In this document: positions 2,074 to 17,016 of the stretch, one piece after another
Position numbering within the stretch: position 1 is the first letter of the stretch
Layout: every line of letters starts with the position of its first letter
NCBI GenBank assembly: GCA_041497995.1
Contig: JBGQHM010000111.1
Coordinates: 1 to 17,016 of the forward strand
Source of the DNA: Candidatus Binatia bacterium
GTDB taxonomy: Bacteria > Desulfobacterota > Binatia > HRBIN30
Length of the DNA stretch: 17,016 nt
Reading direction: 5' to 3'
Notes under the pieces: generated by a model
Databases searched by the model: none
The model's input: the letters and a program-made list of their open reading frames with translations, nothing else
Told to the model about the DNA's origin: nothing
Translations under genes and position numbers: made by a program

Positions 2074-2153
2074 CCTTGAGAGCCAGGACGCCTACCTTCG
2101 CAGCGTTGGCTCCGGGGGGAGCGGAACCCTACAGATCGATGGAGGGACAGCTG

Positions 2154-2810: not shown

Positions 2811-2830
2811 CGAGCCCGTACCGCATAAGC

Positions 2831-2870
2831 AAAGGGGGGTGGTACCGCGTGACGGTGCCACCCCCCTTGT
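2831..2870. terminator. Bidirectional rho-independent terminator between convergent genes
   Basis: A 14-bp GC-rich stem (2834-2847 pairing 2853-2866, one G.U pair) closes a 5-nt loop. It is flanked by AAA (2831-2833) and TTGT (2867-2870). It lies between the 2810 stop of the + gene and the 2892 stop of the - gene. Confidence 0.7.
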
Positions 2871-2891
2871 GCGTTCTACGAACCTTCTGAC

Positions 2892-4016
2892 TTAGTTCGA
2901 CAACTTGTACAGCTTCGCCGCATTGCCGGCACACATCTGTTGGCGCTCGGCGGTCGGCACGTCGCGGAACATGTCGTCGACGACGCGACGCGTCTCTGGC
3001 CAATCGCAGCCGTGGTGCGGATAGTCGGTCGACCACATCATGTTCTCGACGCCGATGACGTGGCGGTTCATCACGGCGTAGCGATCGATCATGAACGCGG
3101 CGCGCCAGTTCCGATGAAAGTAGAAGCTCGGCTCGTGCTTGAGCTTCACGGGGAGCCACCAGCGATTGCGCCACCAGCGATCGTCCATCTGCTCGAGGAT
3201 GTAGGGGATCCACCCGCACCCTGTTTCGACGGCGACCCAGATCAAATTGGGAAACCGATCATGCACACCGGAGCTGATGATCTCCGGCAGGTCAGTGATC
3301 ATGCTCGATGCACCGACGGTGGCCAACCCGGTGAGGTCGTCGCCGCGCACGCCCTTGGGCTTCGGCTTCAGGATCTGGCGCATCACCCGCACGTGAAAGT
3401 GCACCGGCACACATGCCGCCTGCACGGCATCCCAGAACGGATCGTCTTCGGGGCGGATCGCCGGGCCGGCGCTGGGCATGGTGTTGAGCCACACCCCGCG
3501 CATGCCCATCTTCAGGCAGCGTTCCATTTCCTTGATGCACGCATCGACGCCGAGCGCCGGCATCGCCGCCAACCCGATGAGCCGGTCCGGCGCTGCTTTC
3601 ACGAACTCCTGCGCCAGCCAGTTGTTGTAGGCCTGCACACCAGCGAGATGGAACTCGGGGTCAGGATCGGAAAAGAAGTGACTCATCATGCGCGCCGAAC
3701 CGAAGAGCACTTCCGCGTCGACGCCGTCGGTGTCCTGTTCTTCGAGACGCGGCGCCGCCTTGAAGTTCCCTTGATTCGCCGCCGCGAAGGTCACGCCGGT
3801 CCAGCGCACCTCTTCATGCTTGCGGCCCGCTGATGCGTAAATCCCGATCGGTGCCGGAGGCGTTTCGGGGGCAAACTGCCACGCTTCGCCACCTTCGCCG
3901 TCGGGCACGACTCGCGGTGCTTTCGCATGGAACTTCTTGGGCATGTACTCGGTCCACAGATGCGGCGGTTCGAGGATGTGCGAGTCCGCCGAGATGAGTC
4001 TGTATTCACGCGCCAT
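2892..4016 (-). CDS. Amidohydrolase-2 family metal-dependent hydrolase/decarboxylase (ACMSD/LigW-like)
   Basis: A 374-aa ORF. The N-terminus 'ISADSHILEPPHLWTEYMP' matches the Amidohydro_2 metal-binding HxH-type start. His/Asp residues typical of the TIM-barrel amidohydrolase fold follow. Confidence 0.7.
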   Translation of the reverse strand: MAREYRLISADSHILEPPHLWTEYMPKKFHAKAPRVVPDGEGGEAWQFAPETPPAPIGIYASAGRKHEEVRWTGVTFAAANQGNFKAAPRLEEQDTDGVDAEVLFGSARMMSHFFSDPDPEFHLAGVQAYNNWLAQEFVKAAPDRLIGLAAMPALGVDACIKEMERCLKMGMRGVWLNTMPSAGPAIRPEDDPFWDAVQAACVPVHFHVRVMRQILKPKPKGVRGDDLTGLATVGASSMITDLPEIISSGVHDRFPNLIWVAVETGCGWIPYILEQMDDRWWRNRWWLPVKLKHEPSFYFHRNWRAAFMIDRYAVMNRHVIGVENMMWSTDYPHHGCDWPETRRVVDDMFRDVPTAERQQMCAGNAAKLYKLSN

Positions 4017-4099
4017 GGGTACGACCTTTCTTTGTTCGGCTCCCGGAGGCAGACGCGCTGCCTCCGGCGACTGAGCGCCAGCGCTGCCGGCGTGAGCGT

Positions 4100-4135
4100 T
4101 CGTTCTTCACTGAACTAACACTTGTTAATATAGCC
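4100..4135. promoter_or_regulatory. AT-rich island with short palindromes in the divergent amidohydrolase/adhE promoter region; candidate operator
   Basis: 'cttcactgaactaacacttgttaatatagcc' is a local GC drop in a region otherwise about 68% GC. It contains the palindromes TTCAcTGAA (4106-4114) and TAACActTGTTA (4116-4127). It lies about 170 nt upstream of the adhE start. Confidence 0.3.
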
Positions 4136-4302
4136 TTCTGGCAGGTGCAAGAGTCTTCGCAGTCGTCGCAGGGCCGGTGCTGATGGTTTTCAGGAAATGC
4201 GAACGCTCTTCCTGCTGCGGGCCGCGGGTGGCCGCTATGCAACTGGCACCACGCTTGCTCAACTCGTTCTTCAACCAGTGCGGTGCGTGAGGAGGGACTC
4301 CG

Positions 4303-6939
4303 ATGCTCCAGACGGCAATCAAGCTGGGTGACCCCCCCCAGGTGGCGAGCGTGCGACGGAAGGAGCTCACGCCGGAGCGCCAGCGATATCTGGACGAGTT
4401 GGTGTCCCGCTCGCGGCACGCGGCGGCGACGTTCTACCAATTCTCGCAGGAGCAGGTGGATCGTTGCGTGCGTGCGATGGTGCTCGCCGGACTGGAGGCG
4501 GCGCAGCAGTTGGCGGCGCTCGCGGTGACGGAGACGAAGCTCGGGGTGCTCGAAGACAAGGTGGTCAAGAACATGGTGGCGACCGAGTTCGTGTACCACT
4601 CGATCAAGGACGAGAAAACGGTCGGGGTCATCCGCGAGTGTCCGGAGCGCAACCTGAAAGAGATCGCCGAGCCGATCGGTGTCATCCTCGGTGTCACGCC
4701 GATCACCAACCCGACGTCGACCGTGCTGTTCAAGTCGTTGATGATGGCGAAGACGCGTAACGCGGTGGTGTTCTGCCCGCATCCGGGCGCGCAGCAGTGC
4801 TCGAACGAGGCGGCACGCGTGATGTACGAGGCCGCGCTCGCGGCGGGGGCACCAGAGGGGTTCATCGGCTGGGTCGATGACATCGCCATCAGCGACACGC
4901 AGTATCTGATGCGTCACCCGGATGTGGCGCTCATCGATGCCACCGGCGGGCCGGGCGTGGTGAAAGCGGCGTACAGCTCCGGCAAACCGGCGCTCGGCGT
5001 CGGCGCCGGCAACGTGCCCTGCTACATCCACCGCAGCGCCGACCTCAACATGGCCGTCGTCGACATCCTCACTTCGAAGACCTTCGACAACGGCACCATT
5101 TGCGCGTCGGAGCAGACGGTACTTGTGGACCGTTCGGTGTACGCGCGCGTCGTCGAGCTCTTCGCGTCGCTCGGTGCGCATGTCTGCAGCGCAGAGGAAG
5201 TCGCGCTGCTCGAGCGCACCGTGGTGGATGCCACCACCGGGACGATGCGCCCGACGGCCGTCGGGCAGAGCGCGCCGGCGATCGCGCACGCCATCGGCAT
5301 GCACGTCGCGCCGGGCACCAAGCTGCTGCTGGCGCCGCTCCAAGGCGTCGGACGCGCCCACCCGCTGTCGTGCGAGAAGCTGTTCCCGGTCCTCGGCATC
5401 CTCCCGGTCGATGGCGAGGACGAAGCCATCAACGCCGCGATGGACGTGCTCTACTTCGGCGGCGTCGGTCACACCGCGTCGATCTTTTGTGAAGACGACG
5501 CGGTCATCGATCGCTATGGTGTGGCGCTGAACGCCGGGCGCATCATCGTCAACTGCCCCTCGTCAGTCGGCGCTCTCGGCGGCGTCTACAACGACCTGCG
5601 GCCGACCTTCTCGTTCGGCTGCGGCACCGGCGGCGGCAACAGCACGATCGAGAACGTCAGCGTGCGCAACTACATGAACGTCAAGCAGCTGGCGAAGCGG
5701 ACGCCGGCGCACCAGTGGCTGCGCGTGCCGAACCAGATCTACTACAACTTGCACGCGCTGGAGAACCTGCGCGCCATCGACGCCGGGAACGTGTTGATCA
5801 TCACTAGCCAGGACTTGGACGACCTCGGCCTGGTTGATCAAGTCCGCTCGTATCTCCCGAACGGCTCGCACGCTCACGTCTTCAACGAGGTAGAGGTCGA
5901 GCCGACGTATCGCGTCATCGCGCGCGGCGTCGAGGCGATCCAGCACCATCATCCCGATCACCTCATCGCCGTAGGTGGTGGCTCGGTCATGGATGCAGCG
6001 AAGGCGATGCGCTTGTTCTACGCGCATCCCGACTTGGACTTTCGCAGCTTGGAGACCACCTTCCTCGATCCACGCAAGCGAGTCATTCAGTACCCGCGCC
6101 AGGCACGCGATCATCTCAGGCTCATTGCCATCCCCACGACCAGCGGCACCGGCTCGGAAGTGACGCCGTTCGCGGTGATCACCGACAGCGAGCGCGGCCG
6201 CAAGGTACCGTTGTATGACAATAGTCTCATTCCCGACGTCGCGATCATCGATCCGCAGCTGGTGCGTGGCCTGCCGGCAAGCGTCACCGCCGATACCGGA
6301 CTCGATGCACTGACGCACGCGTTGGAGGCCGGCGTATCGATATTTGCGTCGGAGTATACGGACGCGCTGGCGCTGCAAGCCGCGCGGGTGGTCTTCGAGT
6401 TTTTGCCGCGGGCGGTGCACGACGGCAGCGACATGGAGGCGCGCGCCAAGATGCACAACGCCGCCTGCATGGCAGGGATGGCGTTCGCCAACGCCTTCGT
6501 CGGCGTCAACCATGCGCTGGCGCACAGCCTCGGATCGGCGTTCAAGATTCCGCACGGACGTGCCAACGCCGTGCTGTTGCCGTACGTTGTGCGCTACAAC
6601 GCCGCGGTGCCGAGTAAGTTCATGCCCTTCCCCAACGTCAAAGCCTACGTCGCGCACCGCAAGTATGCACAGTTTGCCGAGGCCATGAGTTGGGGCGGCT
6701 CGAGCCCTGAGGAGAAGGTCGAGATCCTGATCGCCAAGATCTTCGCGCTGCTGGAGACGTGCAATCTGCCGACCTCGATCAAGGAGTTGGGCATCGCCGC
6801 GGAAGACTTCGAGCGCGCGATACCCGATATCATCCGCGCCGCTTTCGACGACATCAGCATCCGGTCGAATCCGCGTATGCCGTTGATCAAGGAGCTCGAG
6901 GACATTCTGCGGACCGCATATGCGGGCCGCCGCAGCTGA
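4303..6939 (+). CDS. adhE: Bifunctional acetaldehyde-CoA/alcohol dehydrogenase AdhE (N-terminal ALDH domain plus C-terminal Fe-ADH domain)
   Basis: An 878-aa ORF. GAGGAGGG sits 6 nt upstream of the ATG. It is collinear with E. coli AdhE: 'FSQEQVD', the catalytic-Cys motif '[11 protein letters not shown]', Fe-ADH '[11 protein letters not shown]' and His-rich metal motifs 'HALAHSLG'. Confidence 0.9.
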
Positions 6940-6954
6940 GGCGGGAGGCGTGAC

Positions 6955-7260
6955 ATGAATCATCTGAACGGAGAGAACCCGCGACTGCGGCTCGATCCGG
7001 ATGGGAGCGAAACGTTCCTCAAACACCTCAGGGCTGAGCTGCAGAAGCCGTCGGTGTGCGCGGTCACCGTCGATCTAGGACGCGTCGGGCGCGTCGACCC
7101 GTTGATTCTGCAGACGCTACGCACTGCCGGCGAGGAAGCGGACGTCACTCGCAAGGATCTCTACGTCGACGGCGCCGGACCCGTCGTGTACAAGTCCTTG
7201 CAGCTCGCCAAGCTCGGCTCATTCTTCAAGCGGCTGCATCACGCGACCGCGCCATGCTGA
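6955..7260 (+). CDS. Small STAS-domain-like protein (putative anti-sigma-factor-antagonist fold), translationally coupled to adhE
   Basis: The ATG at 6955 is preceded by GGGAGG (6941-6946). 'VTVDLGRVGRVDPLILQTL' and 'DLYVDGAGPVVYKSLQLAKLGSFF' loosely resemble the SpoIIAA/STAS core. This is a weak recall-based assignment. Confidence 0.35.
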   Translation: MNHLNGENPRLRLDPDGSETFLKHLRAELQKPSVCAVTVDLGRVGRVDPLILQTLRTAGEEADVTRKDLYVDGAGPVVYKSLQLAKLGSFFKRLHHATAPC

Positions 7261-7354
7261 CGAAGTTTGGTCTGCTCTCCTGACGCGCCATCAGGGTACG
7301 CTGGCGCACGCCGCCGCCGATCTGCTACAGCCACGGCCACACGCGAGGTGCGCC

Positions 7355-8131
7355 ATGGTGACAAGCGATCTGGACGTCGGCTCTCAGTACCTGCACGCCA
7401 CAAAGGGCGGCGGTGTGTTGCGTGTCGTCATCGACCGACCCAAGCGCCGCAACGCGCTGACCATCGAGATGTACCACGGCCTGAAGAAGGCCACGGTGCT
7501 CGCCGAGCGCGACCCCGATGTGGATGTGCTCGTCGTCACGAGCACCGGCGAGTACTTTTGCGTCGGCGGCGAGATGGGCGGGCAACATGAAGGTGGGCAG
7601 GCGCTCGACCGCGAGACCGATCGCTTCGACCTGCTGCCGTTCGTCGAGCTCGAGCGCTGCCCGAAGATCGTCGTGATGGCGATCAACGGCATGTGTCAGG
7701 GCGGCGGGCTCAACATGACTTTGATGAGCGACATCTCCGTGGTTTCCGACCGCGCGACCTTCCGCGCGCCCGAGTTGCTGCGCGGCGTCGCCGACTGCTT
7801 TCTCGGTGCGCGGCTGGCCAGCCGTATCGGCATCGCGCGCGCCAAGTATCTGCTGTTCACGGCGCAGTACATCAGCGCGCAAGAGGCGCTGGCCATAGGC
7901 CTCATCTCACGCGTCGTCCCGCACGATCAACTCGAGACCGCGCTTGCTGAAACCATCGGCTGGATCCGCCAGACCGGCCCGCACGCGCGCACCGCGCTAA
8001 AGCGTGACATGAACCGCCAGCTACCGGTGATCGACTACCCGATGTTCGCCGAGTCGCTCGCGTCTGAAGAAGTACGCGAAGGCTTCACCGCCTTCGTCGA
8101 GAAGCGCCCACCGCGCTGGGCGAGCAAGTAG
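7355..8131 (+). CDS. Enoyl-CoA hydratase/isomerase (crotonase superfamily)
   Basis: A 258-aa ORF. 'RVVIDRPKRRNALT', 'YFCVGGEMGG' and 'GMCQGGGLNMTLMSD' are the crotonase oxyanion-hole signatures. ATG at 7355, TAG at 8129-8131. Confidence 0.8.
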   Translation: MVTSDLDVGSQYLHATKGGGVLRVVIDRPKRRNALTIEMYHGLKKATVLAERDPDVDVLVVTSTGEYFCVGGEMGGQHEGGQALDRETDRFDLLPFVELERCPKIVVMAINGMCQGGGLNMTLMSDISVVSDRATFRAPELLRGVADCFLGARLASRIGIARAKYLLFTAQYISAQEALAIGLISRVVPHDQLETALAETIGWIRQTGPHARTALKRDMNRQLPVIDYPMFAESLASEEVREGFTAFVEKRPPRWASK

Positions 8132-8609
8132 CGCCGCAGAAGCGCCGGTAGGTCCCCCTCCTTACCAAGGAGGGGGCTAGGGGGGAGGTTGCTCTGCGCG
8201 CCCGCAACACGTCCTCGATCCGCGCCAGCACACCCGCAAGATTCTCGAAGACATCCACGTTCGCAAACCGAAGCACCTCAATCCCGAAGCTCTTCAAGTA
8301 CGCCGTTCGCCGCTGGTCGTACGCGACGGCGTCCGCGGTGAAATGCGAATCGCCGTCGATCTCGATCGCCAACTTCGATTGTACTGCGTAGAAGTCGAGG
8401 ACGTAAGCGTTGACGCCGTACTGTCTGTGGAACTTGGTGCCGCGTTGTGCGCCTTTGAGTTGCTGCAACAGCCGGCGCTCGGCTTCCGGCGCGTTGTTGC
8501 GCAGTGTTTGGCGTTTGGTGCGTTCGGTGTGTTTGTTGAAGTGGAGTGTCAGAGCAACCTCCCCCTGCCCCCTCCTTGGTAAGGAGGGGGACCTGTGCCG
8601 CGCCCACAC
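8085..8609 (-). CDS. DUF559 domain protein (Vsr-like endonuclease fold; E. coli YcjD-like) with uncertain true ends, since the ORF reads through both flanking inverted repeats
   Basis: The core 'NKHTERTKR...LRNNAPEAERRLLQQLKG...GTKFHRQYGVNAYVLDFYAVQSKLAIEIDGDSHF...QRRTAYLKSFGIEVLRFANVDVFENLAGVLARIEDVL' matches the short (~120 aa) DUF559 family. The only available start is GTG at 8609, just outside the right repeat. No internal Met exists. The C-terminal ~40 aa are translated from the left repeat and overlap the crotonase 3' end by 47 nt. Confidence 0.6.
   Translation of the reverse strand: MWARHRSPSLPRRGQGEVALTLHFNKHTERTKRQTLRNNAPEAERRLLQQLKGAQRGTKFHRQYGVNAYVLDFYAVQSKLAIEIDGDSHFTADAVAYDQRRTAYLKSFGIEVLRFANVDVFENLAGVLARIEDVLRARRATSPLAPSLVRRGTYRRFCGATCSPSAVGASRRRR
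8151..8196. repeat. Left terminal inverted repeat containing a perfect hairpin (CCCCCTCCTT-acc-AAGGAGGGGG, 8154-8176) plus 'ctaggggggaggttgctctg'
   Basis: Seen directly. Its reverse complement recurs at 8550-8593 with only two small indels. Confidence 0.8.
8550..8593. repeat. Right terminal inverted repeat: 'cagagcaacctccccctg' plus hairpin CCCCCTCCTT-ggt-AAGGAGGGGG (8568-8590)
   Basis: Reverse complement of the left repeat. Differences are 'c-tagggggg-a' versus 'c-aggggg-a'. Confidence 0.8.
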
Positions 8610-8633
8610 CGGCGCGGCGTCGAGCGTTGCCGG

Positions 8634-9260
8634 TTACTTTCTCACGAAACCGCCGACGCCACGCACGATGAAGCTGTCGCACGTCGCGTCATTCAAGCGC
8701 GTCGCGATGTCGGTGGAGGAATTGGTCCCCAGACAGTTGCCCGCTCCAGCTGACTCGAGCAGCGCGACGCCGAGGACGGCGAACGGACTGCCTGAGGGAA
8801 ACGTGAGGCTGGCGAACACCGGGCCGAGATCCACTTTCACCTTGCCCTTGCCGCCCTTCAGCACGACCTTGACGTAGACATTCGTGACGTCGTCGCAGAT
8901 CGGTGGTGCTGCGGTGTCGACCGGGCAAGTGCTGACGGCGATTTTGAGGATGGGGTTGTTGGAATCGCTTTCTGTGGGCCCCGTCGTCATGAGGGCGCCG
9001 GCTCCGTCGGTCACTCCCTGGATCGTGCCAGTCACCTTGAGCGTGTCCGGAATCGTCACCTTCGATTTCGGAGACATCTTCGCCAGCGCGCATTCCGAAT
9101 TGTCAAACCCGCAGCTGAGACCCACGTTCAAGCAGAAGCCGGGACCGACGAAACAATCGGGCGGAGCGGGGATGATGTTCAGCTGGACCTTTGTCCCGGC
9201 CGCGGCCTGCGTGGCAACCAAGGAAAGCATCAACGCGAGCAAAGAGAATCGTCTGCTCAT
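8634..9260 (-). CDS. Secreted hypothetical protein (Sec signal peptide, 8 Cys)
   Basis: ATG at 9260 on the minus strand, with GGGGAGG about 9 nt upstream. The N-terminus 'MSRRFSLLALMLSLVATQAAAG' is a classic signal peptide. The track ORF start at 9332 is an upstream read-through. The body is G/T/S-rich with paired Cys. Confidence 0.6.
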   Translation of the reverse strand: MSRRFSLLALMLSLVATQAAAGTKVQLNIIPAPPDCFVGPGFCLNVGLSCGFDNSECALAKMSPKSKVTIPDTLKVTGTIQGVTDGAGALMTTGPTESDSNNPILKIAVSTCPVDTAAPPICDDVTNVYVKVVLKGGKGKVKVDLGPVFASLTFPSGSPFAVLGVALLESAGAGNCLGTNSSTDIATRLNDATCDSFIVRGVGGFVRK

Positions 9261-9339
9261 GATCACTACCTCCCCTTCTTGTTTTTTGCGATGGTGCTCC
9301 CAGGCAGGCAAAGTTGTCAAGCGTACCTGCACATCGGTC

Positions 9340-9368
9340 TTGACTTAACGAACGTTTGTTCGTAGCTA
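9340..9368 (+). promoter_or_regulatory. Sigma-70-like promoter (TTGACT-N17-TAGCTA) overlapped by a palindromic TetR-type operator ACGAAC-gttt-GTTCGT (9348-9363)
   Basis: Seen in sequence in the 128-bp divergent intergenic region between the secreted-protein gene and the TetR gene. Confidence 0.5.
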
Positions 9369-9388
9369 CAGCCGGGGTCTCCAATCCA

Positions 9389-10069
9389 GTGGTCACGAGC
9401 GTACGCAAGGCCAAACGCGCGGCAACGCCGACGCCGGCGCTACCGACGCGCGAGGTGATTCTCGACACTGCCGAGCGGCTGTTCGCCATGCATGGGGTGG
9501 ACAGCGTGGCGCTGCGCGATCTGGCGCGCGAGATGAACCTGACGGCACCGAGTTTGTACAACCACTTCCCCAGCAAGCAGGCACTGTACGACGCGGTACT
9601 GGACCGCGGCTTGCGGCCGATCCTCGAAGCGATTGCCGCGGCGTGGCATCCCGGCGCACTGCGCGCCGAACAGATGCGCGCCACGGTCGATACGCTGACG
9701 ACTCACCTCGCCACCCACCCGCATCTCGCCCGCCTGCTGCAGCGCGCGATGCTCGACCAGAGCGAGAGCGTGCAGAAACTCATGAGTCGCTGGCTCACGC
9801 CGCTGTACGTCGAGGGCATCGCTGTGATTCGCGAGACCGCCGGCGACGCCGGCTGGGAGGCAGACGAGGTGCCGCATCTCACCCTCGGATTGTTTGGGAT
9901 GGTCTTCGCGTATTTTACCAACGCCGCTGCGCTGCAATCGTTTGTTGCCGGCAGCGGCGATCCCATGTCACCGCAAGCGCTGGCGATCCAGCGCCGCGTC
10001 ATCGAAAAGGCGATCTACCGCTTGCTCGGGCCGCTGCCGCGCGGCGCCGAACGCAGAAAGAAGGCATGA
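9389..10069 (+). CDS. TetR/AcrR family transcriptional regulator
   Basis: HTH segment 'EVILDTAERLFAMHGVDSVALRDLAREMNLTAPSLYNHFPSKQALY'. The start is uncertain: GTG at 9389 is preferred, because the TTG at 9356 listed by the track lies inside the operator and promoter. Stop is TGA at 10067-10069. Confidence 0.75.
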   Translation: MVTSVRKAKRAATPTPALPTREVILDTAERLFAMHGVDSVALRDLAREMNLTAPSLYNHFPSKQALYDAVLDRGLRPILEAIAAAWHPGALRAEQMRATVDTLTTHLATHPHLARLLQRAMLDQSESVQKLMSRWLTPLYVEGIAVIRETAGDAGWEADEVPHLTLGLFGMVFAYFTNAAALQSFVAGSGDPMSPQALAIQRRVIEKAIYRLLGPLPRGAERRKKA

Positions 10070-10073
10070 GAGC

Positions 10074-11195
10074 ATGGCTGCAGCTGAACAGGGAAAGATC
10101 ACCGACGAAGGCATCGCTAAGCTGCGCGAACGCGTCGGCAAAGGCTTCGAAGGCCGGCGCCCGTGGCGCACTGAAGTCACGCGCGACGCCATTTATCACC
10201 TCGCGTTGGCGATCGGCGACCTCAACCCGCTGTACCTCGACGAGGAGTACGCCAAGAAGACGCGCTGGGGGACGCTGCTGGCGCCGCCGATCATCGTGCA
10301 GACGATGGACACGCTGCGCGCCGTCGGCCACAGCGGTCTGCCCGAAGGCCTGCCGGGCGTGCACTCCATCTGGACCGGCTCGCTCTATGAGTGGGTACGT
10401 CCGCCGCAGCTCGGTGACCGCATTCGCGCCGACTCCTACATGAAGGAGATCCGCGAGAAGGACAGCACCTTCGGCGGCGGCCGCGCGCTCTATCAAACCT
10501 ACGAGGCCAAGTACTACGACCAGAACGGTACCTACATGGGCGTCCGCAACGACACCTGGATTCGCATCGAGCGCGCCAAGACGGCGGAGAAAAAGAAATA
10601 CGGCGACATCAAGTTGGCCGAATGGAAGCCGGAAGACATCACGGGCTTCATGGAAGAGTACCGCACCGAACGACGTACGACCGCACGCTATTGGAACGAC
10701 GTGAAAGTGGGCGAGTCGATGAACCGCATCATCAAGGGCCCGCTGACACCGACCGCCGAGATCGCCTTCGAGTCATACTTCGGCATCTATTTGGTCGGCA
10801 ACAAAGTCGCCGCAAACCTGTACGCCAAGCACCCGGCGCTGATGATTCCCAACGAGCAAGGCATCCCCGAGCCACCGCAACGTGTGCATTGGGACAACGC
10901 CTTCACGCAACGTTTGCTCGGCTTGCCAGGTGCGTATGATCTCGGTCCTGAGCGGTGCTCGTGGCTCATCCAGGGGATGACCGACTGGATCGGCGACAAC
11001 GGCCGGCTGACCAAGCTCGAAGCCAAGTACCTGAAGTTCAACTACATGGGTGACGTCACCTGGGTGCAGGGCAAGGTGACCGACAAGTTCGAACAGGATG
11101 GTAAAGGCTTCGTACGCTGCGCGCTCGAATGCGTCAACCATCGCGACGAAGTTACGGCGGCGGCAACCGCCGAGGCGGAGTTGCCACACCGCTGA
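10074..11195 (+). CDS. Double hot-dog MaoC-family (R)-specific enoyl-CoA hydratase/dehydratase (MaoC_dehydrat_N plus MaoC_dehydratase)
   Basis: ATG at 10074 lies 4 nt after the TetR stop, giving a 373-aa product. The track start at 9894 is an in-frame read-through of the TetR 3' end. Two hot-dog halves are visible, one of them at 'HRDEVTAAATAEAELPHR'. Confidence 0.7.
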   Translation: MAAAEQGKITDEGIAKLRERVGKGFEGRRPWRTEVTRDAIYHLALAIGDLNPLYLDEEYAKKTRWGTLLAPPIIVQTMDTLRAVGHSGLPEGLPGVHSIWTGSLYEWVRPPQLGDRIRADSYMKEIREKDSTFGGGRALYQTYEAKYYDQNGTYMGVRNDTWIRIERAKTAEKKKYGDIKLAEWKPEDITGFMEEYRTERRTTARYWNDVKVGESMNRIIKGPLTPTAEIAFESYFGIYLVGNKVAANLYAKHPALMIPNEQGIPEPPQRVHWDNAFTQRLLGLPGAYDLGPERCSWLIQGMTDWIGDNGRLTKLEAKYLKFNYMGDVTWVQGKVTDKFEQDGKGFVRCALECVNHRDEVTAAATAEAELPHR

Positions 11196-11211: not shown

Positions 11212-12447
11212 ATGAAACTGGCAGACGTCGATCTGTGCAACCTCGACCAGTTCGAGACGGGTGTCCCGCACCATGTCTTCAAACTGCTGCGTGCCGAATC
11301 GCCGGTGCACCGCCATGCGGAGCCCAATGGCGGCCCCGGGTTCTGGGTGGTCACGAAATATCACGACCTGATGAACGTTTCGAAGAACCCGGGCACGTTC
11401 TCGTCCTACAAGGGCGGCACCAATATCTTCGACGTCGAGCCGGAGCAGCTCAGCCAAACGCGGATGATCATGCTCAACATGGATCCACCGGCGCATAGCA
11501 AGTATCGCAAGCTGGTGAGCCAAGGCTTCGTACCGCGCATCGTCTCGCGGCTGGAAGAGCACGTCCGCGAGATGACGCGGCACATCGTCGACAGCATCGC
11601 CGCACGCGGCGAGTGCGACTTCGTCACCGAGGTCGCCGCCGAGCTGCCGCTGCAGGTGATCGCCGAGTTTCTCGGCGTCCCGCTCGCGGATCGCCACAAG
11701 GTCTTCGAATGGAGCAACCGCCTCATCGGCTTCGACGATCCGGAATTCAACGGCAACGCCAAGGAAGAGGGGATGCGCGCCGCCACCGAGATGTACATGT
11801 ATGCGAACCAGCTCGCCCTCGAGCGGCGCGATCATCCGCGCGACGACCTGGTCAGCGTGTTGATGCGTGGCGAGGTTGATGGCGAGCGCTTGTCGGAGAT
11901 GGAGTTCGATTCGTTCTTTCTGCTGCTCGCGGTGGCGGGGAACGAGACGACGCGCAACCTGATTTCCGGGGGCATGCTGGCGCTCATCGAACACCCCGAG
12001 CAGCGCGCGCGGCTGGTCGCCGACATGTCGCTGCTGCCCACCGCGGTCGAAGAGATGCTGCGCTGGGTGTCGCCGGTGATGCACTTCCGCCGCACCGCAA
12101 CTCGTGACACGGAGCTTCGTGGCCAGAAAATCGGCGAGGGCGAAAAGGTGGTGATCTTCTATCCGTCGGTGAACCGCGACGAGGAGATCTTTCCCGACGG
12201 TGATCAGTTCAACGTCAGCCGCAGCCCGAACGAGCATCTCGCCTTCGGTATCGGCGAACACTTCTGTATCGGGTCAAACCTTGCACGGCTTGAGATCCGA
12301 CTGATGTTCCAGGAATTGCTGACCCGCCTGCCGGACATTGAGCTGGCAGGGCCGGTACACCGCCTGCGGTCGAACTTCATCAACGGCATCAAGCGCATGC
12401 CCGTACGCTTCACCCCTGAACGCGCACACCACGCGGCACACGCGTGA
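11212..12447 (+). CDS. Cytochrome P450, CYP125/CYP142-like (steroid/alkyl side-chain terminal hydroxylase family)
   Basis: ATG at 11212 with GGAGAG 5 nt upstream. Heme-thiolate motif 'FGIGEHFCIGSNLARLE', the EXXR motif 'EEMLRW' and 'AGNETTRN' in the I-helix. The N-terminus 'MKLADVDLCNLDQFETGVPHHVF' resembles mycobacterial CYP142/CYP125. Confidence 0.85.
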   Translation: MKLADVDLCNLDQFETGVPHHVFKLLRAESPVHRHAEPNGGPGFWVVTKYHDLMNVSKNPGTFSSYKGGTNIFDVEPEQLSQTRMIMLNMDPPAHSKYRKLVSQGFVPRIVSRLEEHVREMTRHIVDSIAARGECDFVTEVAAELPLQVIAEFLGVPLADRHKVFEWSNRLIGFDDPEFNGNAKEEGMRAATEMYMYANQLALERRDHPRDDLVSVLMRGEVDGERLSEMEFDSFFLLLAVAGNETTRNLISGGMLALIEHPEQRARLVADMSLLPTAVEEMLRWVSPVMHFRRTATRDTELRGQKIGEGEKVVIFYPSVNRDEEIFPDGDQFNVSRSPNEHLAFGIGEHFCIGSNLARLEIRLMFQELLTRLPDIELAGPVHRLRSNFINGIKRMPVRFTPERAHHAAHA

Positions 12448-12458
12448 AGTGCGGCGAC

Positions 12459-13688
12459 ATGAACCTCGACGACATCGACCTGTTGAACGCCGACAACTTC
12501 GTTGCGGGCGTCCCGCACGAAGCCTTCCGTACGCTGCGCCAGCAGGCGCCGGTGTTCTGGCACAAGGAAGCCGACGGCCCTGGATTCTGGGCGGTGACGA
12601 AGTATCAGGACGTCGCCACGGTATCGCGCGACCCGCGCACCTACTCCTCGGCCAAGAAAGGGGTGTTCGTCTTCGATCCGGTGCCCGAAGATCTCCAGCG
12701 TATGCAGCTGATGATGCTCAACATGGACCCGCCGAAGCACACCAAGCTGCGGGCTCTAGTGAACAAGGGCTTCACGCCGCGTATGGTCGCGCAGCTCGAA
12801 TCGCGTCTGCGCGCCAGAACCAACGAGATCATCGACGATGTCGCCGCGAGGGGACAGTGCGACTTTGTGAGCGACATCGCCGCCGAGCTGCCGCTGCAAG
12901 CCATTGCCGAGCTGCTGGGCATCCCGCTCTCCGACCGGCATTTGGTGTTCAACTGGACCAACCGCCTGATCGGTTTCGACGACCCGGATCAGGGGTCGTG
13001 GGAGGAAGGCAAGCTCGCCGCTGCGGAGATGTACATGTACGCCAACCAGCTCGCCGCCGAGCGCCGCGACCATCCGGGTGACGACCTCGTCAGCGTGCTG
13101 ATGAACGCCGAGGTCGAAGGCGAACGGCTGACGGAGCTGGAGTTCGATCTGTTCTTCGTCCTGCTCGCCGTGGCCGGCAACGAGACGACGCGCAACCTGA
13201 TCTCCGGCGGCATGCTGGCGTTGATCGAGCATCCGGAGGAGCGCGCGCGGCTCGCGGCCAATCCCGCGTTGATGCCCACCGCCGTCGAGGAGATGCTGCG
13301 CTGGGTGTCGGCGGTCATCGAGTTCCGCCGCACCGCGACCCGCGATACCGAGCTACGCGGGCAGAAGGTCCGGGCGGGTGACAAGGTCATCATCTACTAC
13401 ATTTCGGCCAACCGCGACGAAGACGTGTTCCCCGACGCCGACCGCTTCGATGTCGGTCGTACGCCCAACGATCATCTGGCATTCGGTATCGGCGAGCATT
13501 TCTGCCTCGGATCCAATCTGGCGCGGCTGGAGATTCGCATCATGTTCGAGGAGCTGCTGCGTCGCTTGCCGGATATCGAGTTGGCCGGTGCCGTCGACCG
13601 CTTGCGTTCCAGCCTGATCAACGGCATCAAGCGTATGCCGGTGGTGTTTACTCCTGAGCGCCAGCGCCACGCCGTTGGCGGAGGATGA
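12459..13688 (+). CDS. Cytochrome P450, tandem paralog of the preceding gene (CYP125/CYP142-like)
   Basis: ATG at 12459 gives 'MNLDDIDLLNADNF', which aligns residue-for-residue with the upstream P450 N-terminus. The GTG at 12444 listed by the track overlaps the previous stop. Motifs 'FGIGEHFCLGSNLARLE', 'EEMLRW' and 'AGNETTRN'. Identical nucleotide stretches are shared, for example 11941-11966 and 13177-13202. Confidence 0.85.
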   Translation: MNLDDIDLLNADNFVAGVPHEAFRTLRQQAPVFWHKEADGPGFWAVTKYQDVATVSRDPRTYSSAKKGVFVFDPVPEDLQRMQLMMLNMDPPKHTKLRALVNKGFTPRMVAQLESRLRARTNEIIDDVAARGQCDFVSDIAAELPLQAIAELLGIPLSDRHLVFNWTNRLIGFDDPDQGSWEEGKLAAAEMYMYANQLAAERRDHPGDDLVSVLMNAEVEGERLTELEFDLFFVLLAVAGNETTRNLISGGMLALIEHPEERARLAANPALMPTAVEEMLRWVSAVIEFRRTATRDTELRGQKVRAGDKVIIYYISANRDEDVFPDADRFDVGRTPNDHLAFGIGEHFCLGSNLARLEIRIMFEELLRRLPDIELAGAVDRLRSSLINGIKRMPVVFTPERQRHAVGGG

Positions 13689-13695
13689 GGCTGCG

Positions 13696-13890
13696 ATGAA
13701 GATTCGCATCGACTACGACTTGTGTGAAGGCAACGCCGTGTGCATGAAGGTCTGCCCCGAAGTCTTCGAGGTAGGTGACGACGATCGCGCGCGGTTACGA
13801 GTTAAGGACCCGGACGAGAACCTGCGCGCGAAAGTCGAGGCAGCAGTGCGCCGCTGTCCGCGGCAAGCGCTGGCCATCGAAGCCGCCTGA
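13696..13890 (+). CDS. Small single-cluster ferredoxin (3Fe-4S/4Fe-4S FdxD-type, P450 redox-partner class)
   Basis: ATG at 13696 with GGAGGA about 9 nt upstream. 'MKIRIDYDLCEGNAVCMKVCPEVFEVGDDD...RRCPRQA' is 64 aa with four Cys in the pattern C-x5-C-x3-CP...CP. It sits 7 nt after the second P450. Confidence 0.8.
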   Translation: MKIRIDYDLCEGNAVCMKVCPEVFEVGDDDRARLRVKDPDENLRAKVEAAVRRCPRQALAIEAA

Positions 13891-13915
13891 GGCGCGCCGC
13901 CCCGCGTTGGGGACG

Positions 13916-13943
13916 TTGACTCCCATCTGATTCACGCTAGCTT
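13916..13943 (+). promoter_or_regulatory. Putative sigma-70-like promoter for the encapsulin operon (TTGACT 13916-13921, N16, TAGCTT 13938-13943)
   Basis: Seen in the 86-bp gap between fdx1 and the EncFtn gene. It has the same TTGACT...TAGCT architecture as the TetR-operon promoter at 9340. Confidence 0.4.
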
Positions 13944-13976
13944 GCGGGTTGTCGACGACTGCGAAGGGAGACCGGC

Positions 13977-14339
13977 ATGGCAAGCGACGCGTATCACGAA
14001 CCGCTGGACCTGATCTCGGAGCGTACCCGCAACCTGCACCGCGCCATCGTCAGCCTGATGGAGGAGCTGGAAGCCATCGACTGGTATCAGCAGCGTGCCG
14101 AAGCCTGCTCGGATCCGCAGCTCAAAGCCGTTCTGCTGCACAACAAGAACGAAGAGATCGAGCACGCCATGATGGTGCTCGAATGGATCCGGCGGAACGA
14201 CGAGCACTTCAATGACCCCATGAAGACGTACCTGTTCACCGAAGCGCCGATCACCGGCATCGAGAAGGCCGCCGAGGGCGAGGCTTCCGCCGCGGCGCCG
14301 AACGCGACGCTCGGTATCGGTGCCTTGAAAGGGAGGTGA
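13977..14339 (+). CDS. Encapsulated ferritin-like protein (EncFtn/Flp cargo) with C-terminal encapsulin targeting peptide
   Basis: ATG at 13977 with GGGAG 6 nt upstream. 'HEPLDLISERTRNLHRAIVSLMEELEAIDWYQQR...NKNEEIEHAMMVLEWIRRN...TYLFTEAPITG' is collinear with EncFtn, including the ExxH ferroxidase motif. A flexible linker precedes the C-terminal 'ATLGIGALKGR', which matches the family-1 cargo-loading peptide (GxGxLKG). Confidence 0.85.
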   Translation: MASDAYHEPLDLISERTRNLHRAIVSLMEELEAIDWYQQRAEACSDPQLKAVLLHNKNEEIEHAMMVLEWIRRNDEHFNDPMKTYLFTEAPITGIEKAAEGEASAAAPNATLGIGALKGR

Positions 14340-14342
14340 GCC

Positions 14343-15152
14343 GTGGACCTGCTGAAGCGGAAGCTGGCGCCGATCACGCCTGAGGCGTGGAAACAGATTG
14401 ACGAAGAGGCGAAGCGTGTCCTGCAGCTCACCCTCGCGGGCCGCAAGCTCGTCGACGTCGACGGGCCACACGGCTGGCAACACGCTGCGGTGAACACCGG
14501 CCATTTGAGCATAAAGTCGGATGCCGTTCTCGGCGTCCCGTGGGGGATTCGGGAGGTCGTGCCGTTGATTGAGCTGCGGGTACCCTTCGAGCTGTCGATT
14601 ATGGAGCTCGACAACGCGGCGCGCGGCGCGACGTTGGACTTGGAGCCTGTCGTCGCTGCGGCGGAGCGCGTCGCCCGCGCCGAGGATCTCACCATCTTCA
14701 CCGGTTTCAAGCCGGCAGGCATCGACGGCATCATCGCCCAGAGCCCGCACCCTGCGATCACCATCCCCGACGACTTCGCGAACTACCCACAGGTCGTCGT
14801 CGAGGCGGTGGAAACGTTGCGGCGCGCCGGCATCAACGGGCCCTACGCGATCGCCCTCGGACCGGACTGCTACGCCGGGCTCTCGCAGGCAGCGGAAGAC
14901 GGCTACCCGATCCGCGACCGGGTCCAGCGCTTCCTCGACGGACCGCTGGTGTGGGCACCGCAGGTTGACGGTGCCGTCGTGCTGTCCGTACGCGGCGGTG
15001 ATTTCACGCTCACGATCGGCCAGGACCTGTCGATCGGCTACGCCTCGCACAGCCACGAGAAGGTGGAGCTGTATCTGACGGAGTCGTTCGCCTTCCGTGT
15101 GCACGAGCACGGCGCCGCGGTGCACCTCAAGCCGAAACGCGGCAAGAAGTGA
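14343..15152 (+). CDS. Family-1 encapsulin nanocompartment shell protein (HK97 fold, linocin M18-like)
   Basis: GTG at 14343, 3 nt after the EncFtn stop, with GGGAGG 6 nt upstream. A 269-aa ORF. 'MDLLKRKLAPITPEAWKQIDEEAKRVL...LAGRKLVDVDGPHGW...VVPLIELRVPF...GPYAIALGPDCY...DGYPIRDRVQRFLDGPLVWAP...GGDFTLTIGQDLSIGYASH' is collinear with T. maritima/M. xanthus-type encapsulins. Confidence 0.9.
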   Translation: MDLLKRKLAPITPEAWKQIDEEAKRVLQLTLAGRKLVDVDGPHGWQHAAVNTGHLSIKSDAVLGVPWGIREVVPLIELRVPFELSIMELDNAARGATLDLEPVVAAAERVARAEDLTIFTGFKPAGIDGIIAQSPHPAITIPDDFANYPQVVVEAVETLRRAGINGPYAIALGPDCYAGLSQAAEDGYPIRDRVQRFLDGPLVWAPQVDGAVVLSVRGGDFTLTIGQDLSIGYASHSHEKVELYLTESFAFRVHEHGAAVHLKPKRGKK

Positions 15153-15195
15153 ATTGTGTTGCTGGTGCCGCGACGCGTGTGCAAGGATCGGAGAG

Positions 15196-15390
15196 ATGAA
15201 GGTTCGGGTTGACGACGATCTCTGCGAGGGAAACGCCTTGTGTATGAAAGTGTGTCCGGAAGTGTTCGAGGTCAGAGACGACGACCGGGCGCATCTGCTC
15301 ATCCTGTCCCCCGGTGAGGAACTGCGAGCGAAAGTCGAGGAGGCTGTGCGGAGGTGCCCGCGGCAGGCAATCTCGATTGTGAATGAGTGA
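15196..15390 (+). CDS. Second small ferredoxin, paralog of the gene at 13696 (FdxD-type)
   Basis: ATG at 15196, 44 nt after the shell gene, with AAGGA upstream. 'MKVRVDDDLCEGNALCMKVCPEVFEVRDDD...RRCPRQAISIVNE' has the same Cys pattern. The track start at 15097 is an upstream read-through. Confidence 0.8.
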   Translation: MKVRVDDDLCEGNALCMKVCPEVFEVRDDDRAHLLILSPGEELRAKVEEAVRRCPRQAISIVNE

Positions 15391-17016
15391 CGTCTCGTGG
15401 TTCGCGCGACCCTCTCGCCTAGTGGTGTCGCTGCTGTCGCTGTTGTTCCTTGTGCTGTCGGCACGGGGCACTGCCAACGCGATCGTCTGTACCGACACCG
15501 CTGCAGTAGTGGCCGCCGTCTTCGGCGATCCGGCCGGCGCGTGCGATCTGAACGGTGACGGCATCGTCAGCGCCGCCGACGTCACAGCCGCGCTCCTCGG
15601 CGCTACGTCGGTGACAGCGACGCCAAGCGCGACTGTCACACCAACTCCCACTTCAAGTTCCGACGCGTCGCCAACCGCAACCAGTACCGCAACGCTCACA
15701 CCGACCGCGACCAGAACTCACACACCGGCCCTGTGTCCGACCAGCGGAGCGGATCTCCTCGTGGAGATCGACAACCAGACCGGCACCTCCCCGCTGTCCG
15801 CCGTGCTGAGCGGCCAGCGTATCGATGTGGGCTGCCGGACCACATCGCTCGCTACGTCGTACACCTTCAGCCTCGAGTGCAGCGGCAGTGGGCTCGTCAC
15901 GTGCGGCACAGCCGGCGGCTTGGCGCCCGGTGAATGGCGCCACTCGCTGCACGTGCTCACGCCGCACACCGGACAGTTGCAACATCAGACCTCGATGCTC
16001 GTCGCAGAAGACGTGCCGAACCCGGTGCGCTTCACCGCATTCACTAGCGTGCTCTCGGTGCAGACGACGGCCAACACGGGCAACGGCTCTCTACGCAATC
16101 TGCTGCAGAATGCCGAGAGCGACGCGAAACCCCTGCTCATCCAGTTCGACCCGTCGGTGTTTCCGGACGGCGTCGCAACGACGATTCAGCTGCAGTTCCA
16201 ACTCCCGACGCTTGCCGCGAGCGACGTGACGATCGACGGCACGGACGCCACGGGCACAGCCGGCAATCGCGTCATCGATGCCGGCGGTCTCGCGATCCCC
16301 GCGTTGGCCATTTCAGGCGCGCGCAACCATCTCGTCGGGCTGCGCTTGCAGAACGCCGGCGGCAGCAACCGCGACGTGCTGAACATTTCCGGTGGCACCG
16401 CCGATGCAAACGTGGTGGAGCACGTCATCGTCGAGGGTGCCGCCACCGGCGACGGTATCGGTGTGGACACCAATGCCGGCAAGGACTTCGACGGCAGCGA
16501 GAACATCATCCGCGATTGTGAGGTGTCGGGCGCCTCGGACAAGGGCATCAAAGTGACCACCGGCGCACACGTGCACGTGGAGCGCTGTTGGGTGCACGAC
16601 AACGTCAACGGCGGGATTCAGTCGACGCTCGGCGGCCACGTCCAGGCCTGGCACAACCTCGTCGAGCGCAACCGCGGCGGCACAGCACAGAATGGCCTCT
16701 CGGTGAATGCACAAGACGACAACACCTCGAACGGCGCGTATTCCGAGATGGGCTCGTGGGGGAACATCGCACGCAGCAACGGGGCCAACGGTTTTTCGGT
16801 GCGTGCCTTTGCGTTCGCACACTCTCGCGACGACTACCTCGCGACCAACGGCTCGTCAGGGATCCGTATCTTCAACGACATCGGCCCCGCCGCCACCGCG
16901 CTGGTGGAGGGCACGAGCGCCGTGTGCAACTCCGTCGACGGTGCCGTCGTCGCCAATACCTCGATGGCCGACTTCGGCGGCGGACCGTTCGCCAGCACCG
17001 GCAACAACGCCTTCAA
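15383..17016 (+). CDS. Secreted multi-domain protein: signal peptide, single dockerin/EF-hand-like Ca-binding motif, Thr/Pro-rich linker and right-handed parallel beta-helix (PbH1/pectin-lyase fold) repeats; 3'-truncated by the window end
   Basis: It is absent from the ORF track because it has no in-window stop. My own translation of this frame from ATG 15383 is open to nt 17016. That ATG overlaps the fdx2 stop by 8 nt (AATGAGTGA). The signal peptide is 'MSDVSWFARPSRLVVSLLSLLFLVLSARGTANA'. 'CDLNGDGIVSAADVTAAL' is a DxNxDGxxxxxD loop. Next comes 'TATPSATVTPTPTSSSDASPTATSTATLTPTATRT'. The beta-helix rungs follow, for example 'NISGGTADANVVEHVIVEG', 'SENIIRDCEVSG' and 'AHVHVERCWVHDN'. Confidence 0.6.
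   Translation, partial: MSDVSWFARPSRLVVSLLSLLFLVLSARGTANAIVCTDTAAVVAAVFGDPAGACDLNGDGIVSAADVTAALLGATSVTATPSATVTPTPTSSSDASPTATSTATLTPTATRTHTPALCPTSGADLLVEIDNQTGTSPLSAVLSGQRIDVGCRTTSLATSYTFSLECSGSGLVTCGTAGGLAPGEWRHSLHVLTPHTGQLQHQTSMLVAEDVPNPVRFTAFTSVLSVQTTANTGNGSLRNLLQNAESDAKPLLIQFDPSVFPDGVATTIQLQFQLPTLAASDVTIDGTDATGTAGNRVIDAGGLAIPALAISGARNHLVGLRLQNAGGSNRDVLNISGGTADANVVEHVIVEGAATGDGIGVDTNAGKDFDGSENIIRDCEVSGASDKGIKVTTGAHVHVERCWVHDNVNGGIQSTLGGHVQAWHNLVERNRGGTAQNGLSVNAQDDNTSNGAYSEMGSWGNIARSNGANGFSVRAFAFAHSRDDYLATNGSSGIRIFNDIGPAATALVEGTSAVCNSVDGAVVANTSMADFGGGPFASTGNNAF

Follow-up and report, generated by a model that had tools for sequence, protein, structure and literature searches.

An encapsulin iron-storage cassette as a probable guest in a cytochrome P450 and ferredoxin gene cluster of Candidatus Binatia

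How iron leaves encapsulin nanocompartments that are loaded with encapsulated ferritin (EncFtn) is an open question, and a ferredoxin encoded beside such a compartment would therefore be an attractive lead. A 17,016-nucleotide (nt) stretch of contig JBGQHM010000111.1 from a Candidatus Binatia bacterium (assembly GCA_041497995.1), the whole of which we call the window, seems to offer one: the genes for EncFtn and its encapsulin shell (Enc) lie between two small ferredoxin genes, fdx1 and fdx2, downstream of two cytochrome P450 genes, and the initial annotation accordingly proposed a ferredoxin-coupled encapsulin variant with fdx2 as its dedicated electron donor. Are these ferredoxins partners of the compartment, or its neighbours? 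Comparative evidence favours a single insertion of a mobile iron-storage cassette of two genes into a P450/ferredoxin cluster, with ferredoxin coupling a likely false lead. Specifically, with a probability of roughly two in three, we read EncFtn-Enc in this lineage of uncultured soil bacteria as a separable guest cassette within a TetR-controlled cluster of sterol-type, CYP125-like P450s, which the ferredoxins serve.

The description of the locus with which we began largely stands. All genes of the order P450-P450-fdx1-promoter-EncFtn-shell-fdx2-secreted protein lie on the + strand where they had been placed (Table 1), the two ferredoxins are indeed paralogs, 75% identical over 61 amino acids (aa), and only the spacing of Enc and fdx2 required correction, from 44 to 43 nt (15153-15195). 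Both compartment identities are upheld by Pfam searches, which cover positions 2-85 of 85 of the EncFtn profile, that of a two-helix ferritin fold, and 1-253 of 253 of the shell profile. The best solved relatives of the cargo are H. ochraceum EncFtn (7oe2, E=1e-42) and an encapsulated ferritin-like protein (33bf, E=1.3e-39). The motifs MEELEA-DWY-QR and NEE-EH are kept in the alignments with both, and the stretches MEELEAIDWYQQR and NEEIEHA match both identically or conservatively, so that the Glu/Glu/His of a ferroxidase centre and the Glu-Trp-Tyr region of an entry site are present; the roles of these residues are those described for R. rubrum EncFtn. The C-terminal LGIGALKGR, taken from the outset for a targeting peptide, aligns with the LGIGSL and LGIGSLKG ends of the same two solved chains, and thus supplies the adjacent, peptide-tagged cargo that defines a family-1 system. 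The shell itself belongs to the HK97-fold Linocin_M18 family and aligns to 29 solved family-1 shell chains, best and end to end with 7odw of H. ochraceum (E=1.7e-88). Its GTG start lies 3 nt past the EncFtn stop, with a GGGAGG Shine-Dalgarno sequence inside the end of EncFtn. From the gap-free, end-to-end alignment of this ~269-aa protein with the T=1 shells of H. ochraceum and T. maritima, we infer that it would assemble as a T=1 icosahedron, as expected of shells of ~265 aa that have no E-loop insertion. A flavin site of the T. maritima kind is ruled out, as Met88 replaces the flavin-stacking Trp and leaves no aromatic residue at that position. The shell also ends in a basic tail, KPKRGKK (residues 263-269; 15129-15149), which is absent from the T. 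maritima shell and which occurs in this shell subfamily with or without adjacent ferredoxins. Judged by its sequence, the core of the locus is a standard family-1 EncFtn encapsulin cassette, ordinary in kind.

The arrangement around this cassette is genuine, and the members of one clade share it by descent. The exact shell protein is found, with gene order unchanged, in three metagenome-assembled genomes (MAGs) and several read-assembled contigs, and the whole order TetR-hydratase-P450(s)-fdx1-EncFtn-Enc-fdx2-beta-helix recurs in L035 (partial), L037, L038, L045, L046, L049, and L051, metagenomic loci with shells 84-93% identical to that of the window; the expected recurrence of ferredoxin genes beside EncFtn-encapsulin pairs in diverged relatives is thus borne out. 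Synonymous divergence (dS) among the four full-arrangement loci compared (the window, L037, L038, and L046) is 0.3-1.3, and nonsynonymous-to-synonymous ratios (dN/dS) of 0.02-0.14 place all four small genes under purifying selection. Surveys from either side delimit how far the bracketing extends. A ferredoxin-based survey comprised 80 metagenomic loci with ferredoxins 61-97% identical, whose neighbours are throughout most often P450 and TetR genes, as TetR-P450-fdx or TetR-fdx-P450 loci. Among the 51 loci with at least 700 nt downstream, EncFtn/Enc neighbours appear in 7 of the 12 with ferredoxin identity of at least 85%, and in 0 of the 39 below 85%. A shell-based survey comprised 24 species-representative GTDB loci (46-83% shell identity), all with EncFtn-Enc, together with further clusters at 75-77%. 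None of the 24 has a Fer4_15-type ferredoxin, a P450 or a beta-helix gene within 10 kb, and a scan of all their open reading frames (ORFs) with a hidden Markov model of the ferredoxin and its Cys motif gave nothing better than E=0.24. The four further clusters (75-77% shell identity) comprise one without a partner (L125), one with a flavoprotein (L126), one with an fdx1-only P450 arrangement (L127), and one with superoxide dismutase (SOD; L128-L130). Overall, a Fer4_15-type ferredoxin is absent from 28 of the 29 other EncFtn-Enc loci (46-83% shell identity), and the one exception, L127, is itself a member of the clade. On these comparisons, the bracketing arose once and has been inherited in a single clade.

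This cassette subfamily moves among redox and oxidative-stress contexts (SOD, flavoprotein, P450). In L126 (4062-5997), a gene for a 474-aa Pyr_redox_2 flavoprotein precedes EncFtn-Enc (shell identity 75%) by 148 nt, and a Rieske/ferredoxin-reductase fusion, another candidate redox neighbour, follows on the opposite strand (7851-9077). An Fe/Mn superoxide dismutase stands directly upstream of EncFtn-Enc in L128 (4898-6810), L129, L130, and L015 (~2700-4066), where the loci sit among general-stress genes (YtxH, CsbD and DUF1207 downstream), making this a recurring oxidative-stress context.

Within the clade, the parts of the block have come apart in several ways. Hydratase and P450 trees alike place L047 beside L046 within the encapsulin-bearing clade, yet L047 has lost exactly the cassette promoter, EncFtn and Enc, while keeping fdx1, the element upstream of fdx2, fdx2 and the beta-helix gene; its homology to L046 ends after the fdx1 region and restarts at GTGAATTC, which holds the Enc stop. 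In the window fdx2 lies 1.5 kb from P450b; in L047 it directly follows fdx1. Conversely, L050, L054, and L127 (shells 75-78% identical) read P450-fdx1-EncFtn-Enc-beta-helix, without fdx2. The cassette also occurs elsewhere: in L011-L013, three species-representative MAGs labelled Acidobacteria, the shells nest in the clade (90% identical to L037), and DNA homology to L037 spans only from the EncFtn Shine-Dalgarno sequence to the first ~10-20 nt of fdx2. Given these limits, the cassette moved to a new place without a functional ferredoxin, truncating fdx2, and has persisted there with no such ferredoxin within 10 kb. P450 copies per locus number 2, 1 or 0. Finally, L052 and L053 are related P450-fdx loci that have no encapsulin, and in which fdx1 is followed by a DUF1329/LolA-like, lipoprotein-sorting-like gene (L052, ~1870-3236; L053, ~3020-4404) whose ORF overlaps the fdx end. 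As the beta-helix gene comes next in L052, a P450-fdx...beta-helix frame exists without the cassette. These DUF1329/LolA-like neighbours fit a putative role of the exported proteins of such clusters in uptake of hydrophobic substrates. Repeated swapping of DUF1329 and encapsulin genes at one site (L052/L053 against L127 and the full clade) was considered and dropped, as wherever a single P450 entered the comparison it was P450a-like, which leaves the grouping uninformative.

Conservation also indicates that the cassette carries a sigma-70-like promoter of its own. The promoter annotated at 13916 was missed by a consensus scan of 13600-15600, which called no promoter at all (this one has 8/12 matches) and whose sole terminator-like site falls within P450b; it is nonetheless almost invariant in nine orthologous loci, across which the surrounding spacer varies in sequence and length. 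The block CGTTGACTCC..GATTCnCGCTAGCTTG is nearly unchanged in the window, L037, L038, L045, L046, L049, and L051, is recognisable in L044 and L054, and is gone along with EncFtn and Enc in L047. An element upstream of fdx2 is kept in all fdx2-bearing loci, including encapsulin-free L047, and persists as a remnant in L011-L013. At its other end, the fdx2 stop overlaps the ATG of the beta-helix gene (ATGAGTGA), as it does in the called genes of L001-L006, L035, L037, L038, and L041-L043 (L036 has instead a 38-nt gap), from which fdx2 is predicted to be translationally coupled to the beta-helix gene, and not to Enc. The beta-helix protein has a signal-peptide-like N-terminus and a dockerin-like DLNGDGIVSAADV motif, and the coupling of a cytoplasmic ferredoxin to an exported protein with such a motif is an odd pairing in its own right. 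Co-transcription of Enc and fdx2 in the window is plausible, because their short spacer lacks a hairpin; transcripts from the cassette promoter are likely to continue through fdx2 and the beta-helix gene here, but such read-through would be incidental to ferredoxin function. RNA folding found no structure above shuffled controls in either window spacer (z=+1.09, and +0.63 for Enc-fdx2), and an Rfam scan of 13500-15700 returned just two sub-threshold matches to microRNA models, which we took as noise.

These spacers hold other elements in some relatives. In L038 (8216-8256), a perfect GC-rich 19-bp hairpin (z=-4.4), absent from the window, lies between fdx1 and the cassette promoter, and looks like a terminator or a repetitive extragenic palindromic (REP) element. 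In L046, an insert of ~190 nt (5195-5385) separates the Enc stop from the element upstream of fdx2; the insert is flanked by the direct repeat AAGAAGTGA and contains the inverted repeats GGGCTTCGGACTTCGG / CCGAAGCCC; it looks like a miniature inverted-repeat transposable element or REP-type element with a target-site duplication. L049 carries a 1.65-kb insertion between Enc and fdx2 (8124-9779) with a 179-aa ORF (9173-9709), the product of which combines a linker rich in Thr and Pro with a dockerin-like DGNADGIVDLGELV motif, and has no Pfam match and no similarity to the other loci.

The ferredoxins themselves point to the P450s. Both match the single-cluster families Fer4_15/13/19 and carry CxxNxxC..CP, which is [3Fe-4S]-type by motif; the respective versions, CEGNAVC..CP in fdx1 and CEGNALC..CP in fdx2, are invariant across 8 aligned orthologs. 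Both proteins are acidic (pI 5.35 for fdx1 and 4.93 for fdx2), and with a non-Cys variable residue (Asn), a length in the ~60-70 aa range and adjacency to CYP genes they have the attributes of the P450-partner [3Fe-4S] class. In M. marinum, CXX?XXC(X)nCP ferredoxins encoded next to CYP genes have been shown to hold [3Fe-4S] clusters of comparatively positive potential (PMC6237146), which lends no support to the 'low-potential' donor originally envisaged. Orthologs of fdx1 sit after a P450 in most loci, and the best solved relatives of fdx2 are P. furiosus Fd, 8amp, and a CYP51-ferredoxin fusion. Considering motif class, size, position after P450b and the neighbours of the wider family, fdx1 and fdx2 most likely serve the CYP125-like P450s. 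Neither carries a targeting peptide: across 8 aligned orthologs the N-terminus reads MK(I/V)R(I/V)D and the C-terminus ..AI(E/V)..., with no extension past the 64-aa fold. In a neighbour-joining tree, which is of low resolution given its 61-aa alignment, fdx2 forms a separate clade beside the ferredoxins of TetR-fdx-P450 loci and outside the fdx1 clade. This weakly suggests that fdx2 is an older paralog of fdx1, and gives no support to a recent duplication in situ. Both are under purifying selection (dN/dS 0.02-0.13 for fdx1 and 0.05-0.14 for fdx2), and the latter values rule out fdx2 as a pseudogene.

The P450s to which these ferredoxins would deliver electrons are 68% identical to each other. 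The solved structure nearest to P450b is 8vxi, a reconstructed CYP125 ancestor (E=1.7e-165); CYP124, CYP125 and CYP142 come next. The homologs of P450b carry the JGI name cholest-4-en-3-one 26-monooxygenase, and the named ones at NCBI come from MAGs of Binatia or 'Deltaproteobacteria'. The promoter-like site of tetR holds in its spacer a perfect palindrome, ACGAAC-GTTT-GTTCGT, probably the TetR operator of the cluster. The tetR and EncFtn promoters have the same hexamers, and the palindrome is missing at the latter; when these two promoters and the region upstream of fdx2 were compared for a shared operator, only the -35/-10 hexamers proved to be common. No Fur or IdeR box is conserved among the loci, as judged by eye, and the TAGGTTAACCTA palindrome of L054 is not common to the others.

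Together, these findings suggest the following scheme. EncFtn would be a decameric ferroxidase cargo, translated just 5' of the shell gene and coupled to it, and by analogy with characterised homologs its decamers would be tethered through the C-terminal peptide inside a 60-mer shell, where Fe(II) would be oxidised and the ferric mineral held in the lumen. The cassette would constitute a guest module between fdx1 of the P450 cluster and a second unit formed by fdx2 and the secreted beta-helix protein, and both ferredoxins would be of the type that delivers electrons to bacterial P450s. A number of observations weigh against this scheme. No terminator was found between Enc and fdx2 in the window, and in L050 and L127 the fdx-EncFtn spacer is just ~72-75 nt long and has no cassette promoter, a sign that fdx may be co-transcribed with EncFtn-Enc there. 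The fdx1-EncFtn-Enc-(fdx2)-beta-helix block has, moreover, been held together down to 75% shell identity, with dS of 0.3-1.3 among the full-arrangement loci compared and purifying selection on all four genes. An fdx1 ortholog still stands 5' of EncFtn where the P450s are gone, namely in L049, which retains only a 43-aa remnant of P450b, and in L044, where the upstream gene is MatE on the opposite strand. Lastly, the window shows no gene for a ferredoxin reductase, and thus not the full electron chain of the P450s.

Of the alternatives, the least doubtful, if still an unlikely one, is functional integration at a distance, whereby the encapsulin would be retained in the P450 cluster for buffering iron and consuming O2/H2O2 at times when haem P450 and Fe-S ferredoxin are produced in quantity and uncoupled turnover yields peroxide, and the ferredoxins would never touch the compartment. 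The occurrence of the same cassette type after SOD among stress genes (L128-L130, L015), and after a flavoprotein (L126), fits a role in oxidative stress, and the cassette has been kept in the P450 cluster across three sub-lineages. However, its promoter lacks the TetR-operator palindrome, so that there is no sign of shared regulation; L047 lost the cassette and kept its P450s; and the linkage could be mere inherited gene order. Under the guest-cassette reading, too, if linkage does confer a benefit, a plausible indirect one, through iron and peroxide buffering for a haem- and Fe-S-rich, uncoupling-prone P450 system as a parallel to the SOD-linked copies, is more likely than direct electron transfer from ferredoxin to compartment, against which argue the single origin, the independent losses, the lack of a targeting signal, and Met88 in the shell.

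Direct coupling is what the initial annotation had in mind, and we now think it improbable. In its general form, fdx1 and/or fdx2 would dock outside the shell as a dedicated redox partner, reduce the ferric core and release Fe(II). They would then be to this compartment what Bfd is to bacterioferritin, or the 2Fe-2S ferredoxin to IMEF encapsulins. Put in evolutionary terms, and no more probably, a [3Fe-4S] ferredoxin of the P450-partner type would have been recruited in this clade to act from outside the shell as the physiological source of electrons for drawing iron out of a T=1 EncFtn encapsulin. Recruitment would explain why fdx1 stayed by EncFtn after P450 loss (L044, L049) and why fdx leads EncFtn-Enc, across a short promoter-less spacer, in L050 and L127. 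A partnership would also suit the common strand, the short gaps, the missing hairpin between Enc and fdx2, and a block conserved in the clade with purifying selection on all its parts; an external ferredoxin is, besides, regarded in the literature as a plausible missing factor in iron release (PMC11202242; PMC8610991). Yet the adjacency has a single origin in one clade and is missing at all but one of the 29 other EncFtn-Enc loci, the closest outgroups included, and the ferredoxin family is elsewhere linked to P450 and TetR genes. The parts are also lost separately: three species-level genomes (L011-L013) have kept the cassette with no ferredoxin nearby, L050, L054, and L127 do without fdx2, and both ferredoxins outlast the cassette in L047. 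The case for fdx2 in particular is diminished by its own conserved upstream element and by its overlap with the beta-helix start, and that for either ferredoxin by the absence of a targeting peptide and by a shell in which Met88 precludes a T. maritima-type flavin site. Were recruitment nevertheless true, it would for the first time open iron release from EncFtn systems to genetics, and the natural variants (loci that have the cassette and no fdx, fdx and no cassette, or fdx1 alone) can be used as controls for the ferredoxin idea. That fdx2 is a functionless, decaying duplicate of fdx1 left from the insertion event is scarcely credible, for although fdx2 evolves somewhat faster (orthologs 83-98% identical, against 87-97% for fdx1) and is the sole member of its 90% cluster, compared with 41 members for fdx1, its dN/dS is 0.05-0.14, all cluster ligands are intact in every ortholog, its Shine-Dalgarno sequence and upstream element are conserved, and it belongs to an older, separate clade and is no recent copy of fdx1.

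Table 1. Features of the P450 cluster and the encapsulin cassette in the window.
Feature	Position	Strand	Support or remark
tetR promoter-like site, TTGACT-17 nt-TAGCTA	9340..9368	+	direct sequence reading
TetR-family regulator, 226 aa as called in identical MAG contig L001	9389..10069	+	PF00440 6.8e-15; longest ORF from 9356
MaoC/FAS1-like double hot-dog hydratase	10071..11195	+	PF13452 2.8e-16; 85-97% conserved in orthologous loci
P450a, CYP125/124-like	11212..12447	+	PF00067
P450b, CYP125-like (steroid C26-monooxygenase family)	12459..13688	+	solved-structure matches
fdx1, 64-aa single-cluster ferredoxin	13696..13890	+	PF13459/PF13370; start 7 nt past P450b stop
Predicted encapsulin cassette promoter, TTGACT (13916-13921)-16 nt-TAGCTT (13938-13943)	13916..13943	+	conservation
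EncFtn (encapsulated ferritin), 120 aa, ferroxidase cargo	13977..14339	+	PF22277 E=1e-40
EncFtn C-terminal targeting peptide LGIGALKGR	14310..14336	+	alignment with 7oe2, 33bf
Family-1 encapsulin shell, 269 aa	14343..15152	+	PF04454 E=2.7e-89
Enc-fdx2 spacer, 43 nt, with conserved element GTTGCTGG..GCGTGTGCAAGGATCGGAG and fdx2 Shine-Dalgarno	15153..15195	+	
fdx2, 64-aa ferredoxin	15196..15390	+	PF13459/PF13370
Secreted right-handed beta-helix protein	15383..17016, past window end	+	PF13229 in full-length ortholog (734 aa)

The + strand gene run that contains these features extends from ~9.4 kb to the end of the window, as set by third-codon-position GC (the window is ~64% GC), which backs the + strand frames and speaks against a 510-aa antisense ORF. 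Upstream, 52-8131 codes for a rhamnosidase-like glycosidase, an amidohydrolase (- strand), an 878-aa AdhE-type aldehyde/alcohol dehydrogenase, a STAS protein and an enoyl-CoA hydratase (ECH), of which the amidohydrolase-AdhE-STAS-ECH order is syntenic with L037. Between the ECH and TetR genes, the - strand of 8085-9332 encodes a DUF559/MTES_1575 endonuclease-like protein and a 232-aa protein without a Pfam match, the N-terminus of which has a hydrophobic stretch resembling a signal peptide; as TetR directly follows the ECH gene in L037, this pair looks like a lineage-specific insertion.

A literature search on encapsulins with P450s, Binatia or 3Fe-4S ferredoxins found no description of an EncFtn encapsulin inside a P450/ferredoxin cluster; the genomic context is undescribed, and the system is an ordinary member of the family-1 EncFtn encapsulins. 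Compared by sequence, its closest solved counterpart for both proteins is the EncFtn/encapsulin pair of Haliangium ochraceum (shell 7ODW, cargo-loaded 7OE2), with which it has in common the cargo-then-shell order, the LGIG(A/S)L peptide and the ferroxidase motifs, and from which it differs in lying inside a P450/ferredoxin cluster and in the KPKRGKK tail of its shell. To our knowledge, the IMEF systems of Firmicutes are the only encapsulins with a ferredoxin partner. In these (Quasibacillus thermotolerans type), a co-encoded 2Fe-2S ferredoxin has been proposed to mobilise stored iron (PMC8346489, PMC11202242), and a ferredoxin gene beside an iron-storage encapsulin operon is what they share with the present locus. 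Their cargo is IMEF, their shell is T=4, and their Bfd-like 2Fe-2S ferredoxin bears an N-terminal TVGSL targeting motif and co-purifies with the shell, whereas the present locus has EncFtn cargo, a T=1-type shell and [3Fe-4S]-type Fer4_15 ferredoxins without a targeting motif. Of the four marks of an IMEF and ferredoxin system, none is present here: the cargo matches only EncFtn-like PF22277 and so is not IMEF, and a Bfd-like 2Fe-2S ferredoxin, a TVGSL-like motif and co-occurrence over independent lineages are likewise lacking. The bacterioferritin/Bfd pair of Pseudomonas aeruginosa is the model for ferredoxin-driven iron release from a protein cage (PMC11202242); Bfd, however, is a 2Fe-2S protein and relies on the haem of Bfr as an electron conduit, and no haem or flavin site is evident in the present shell. 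Other ideas for iron release from encapsulins include the flavin bound to the T. maritima shell (PMC8610991) and, for EncA of Myxococcus xanthus, the flavin-binding ferric reductase EncD (PMC11126975), an encapsulated flavoprotein cargo to which nothing encoded at this locus compares. The ferredoxins here are instead most like Fdx4/7/11 of M. marinum and Rv0763c/Rv1786 of M. tuberculosis, which have the same motif (with Asn at the variable position), are acidic and 62-64 aa long, and are encoded directly after a P450 gene; the present host differs in not being actinobacterial, and in that one of its two ferredoxin copies is parted from the P450s by the encapsulin cassette.

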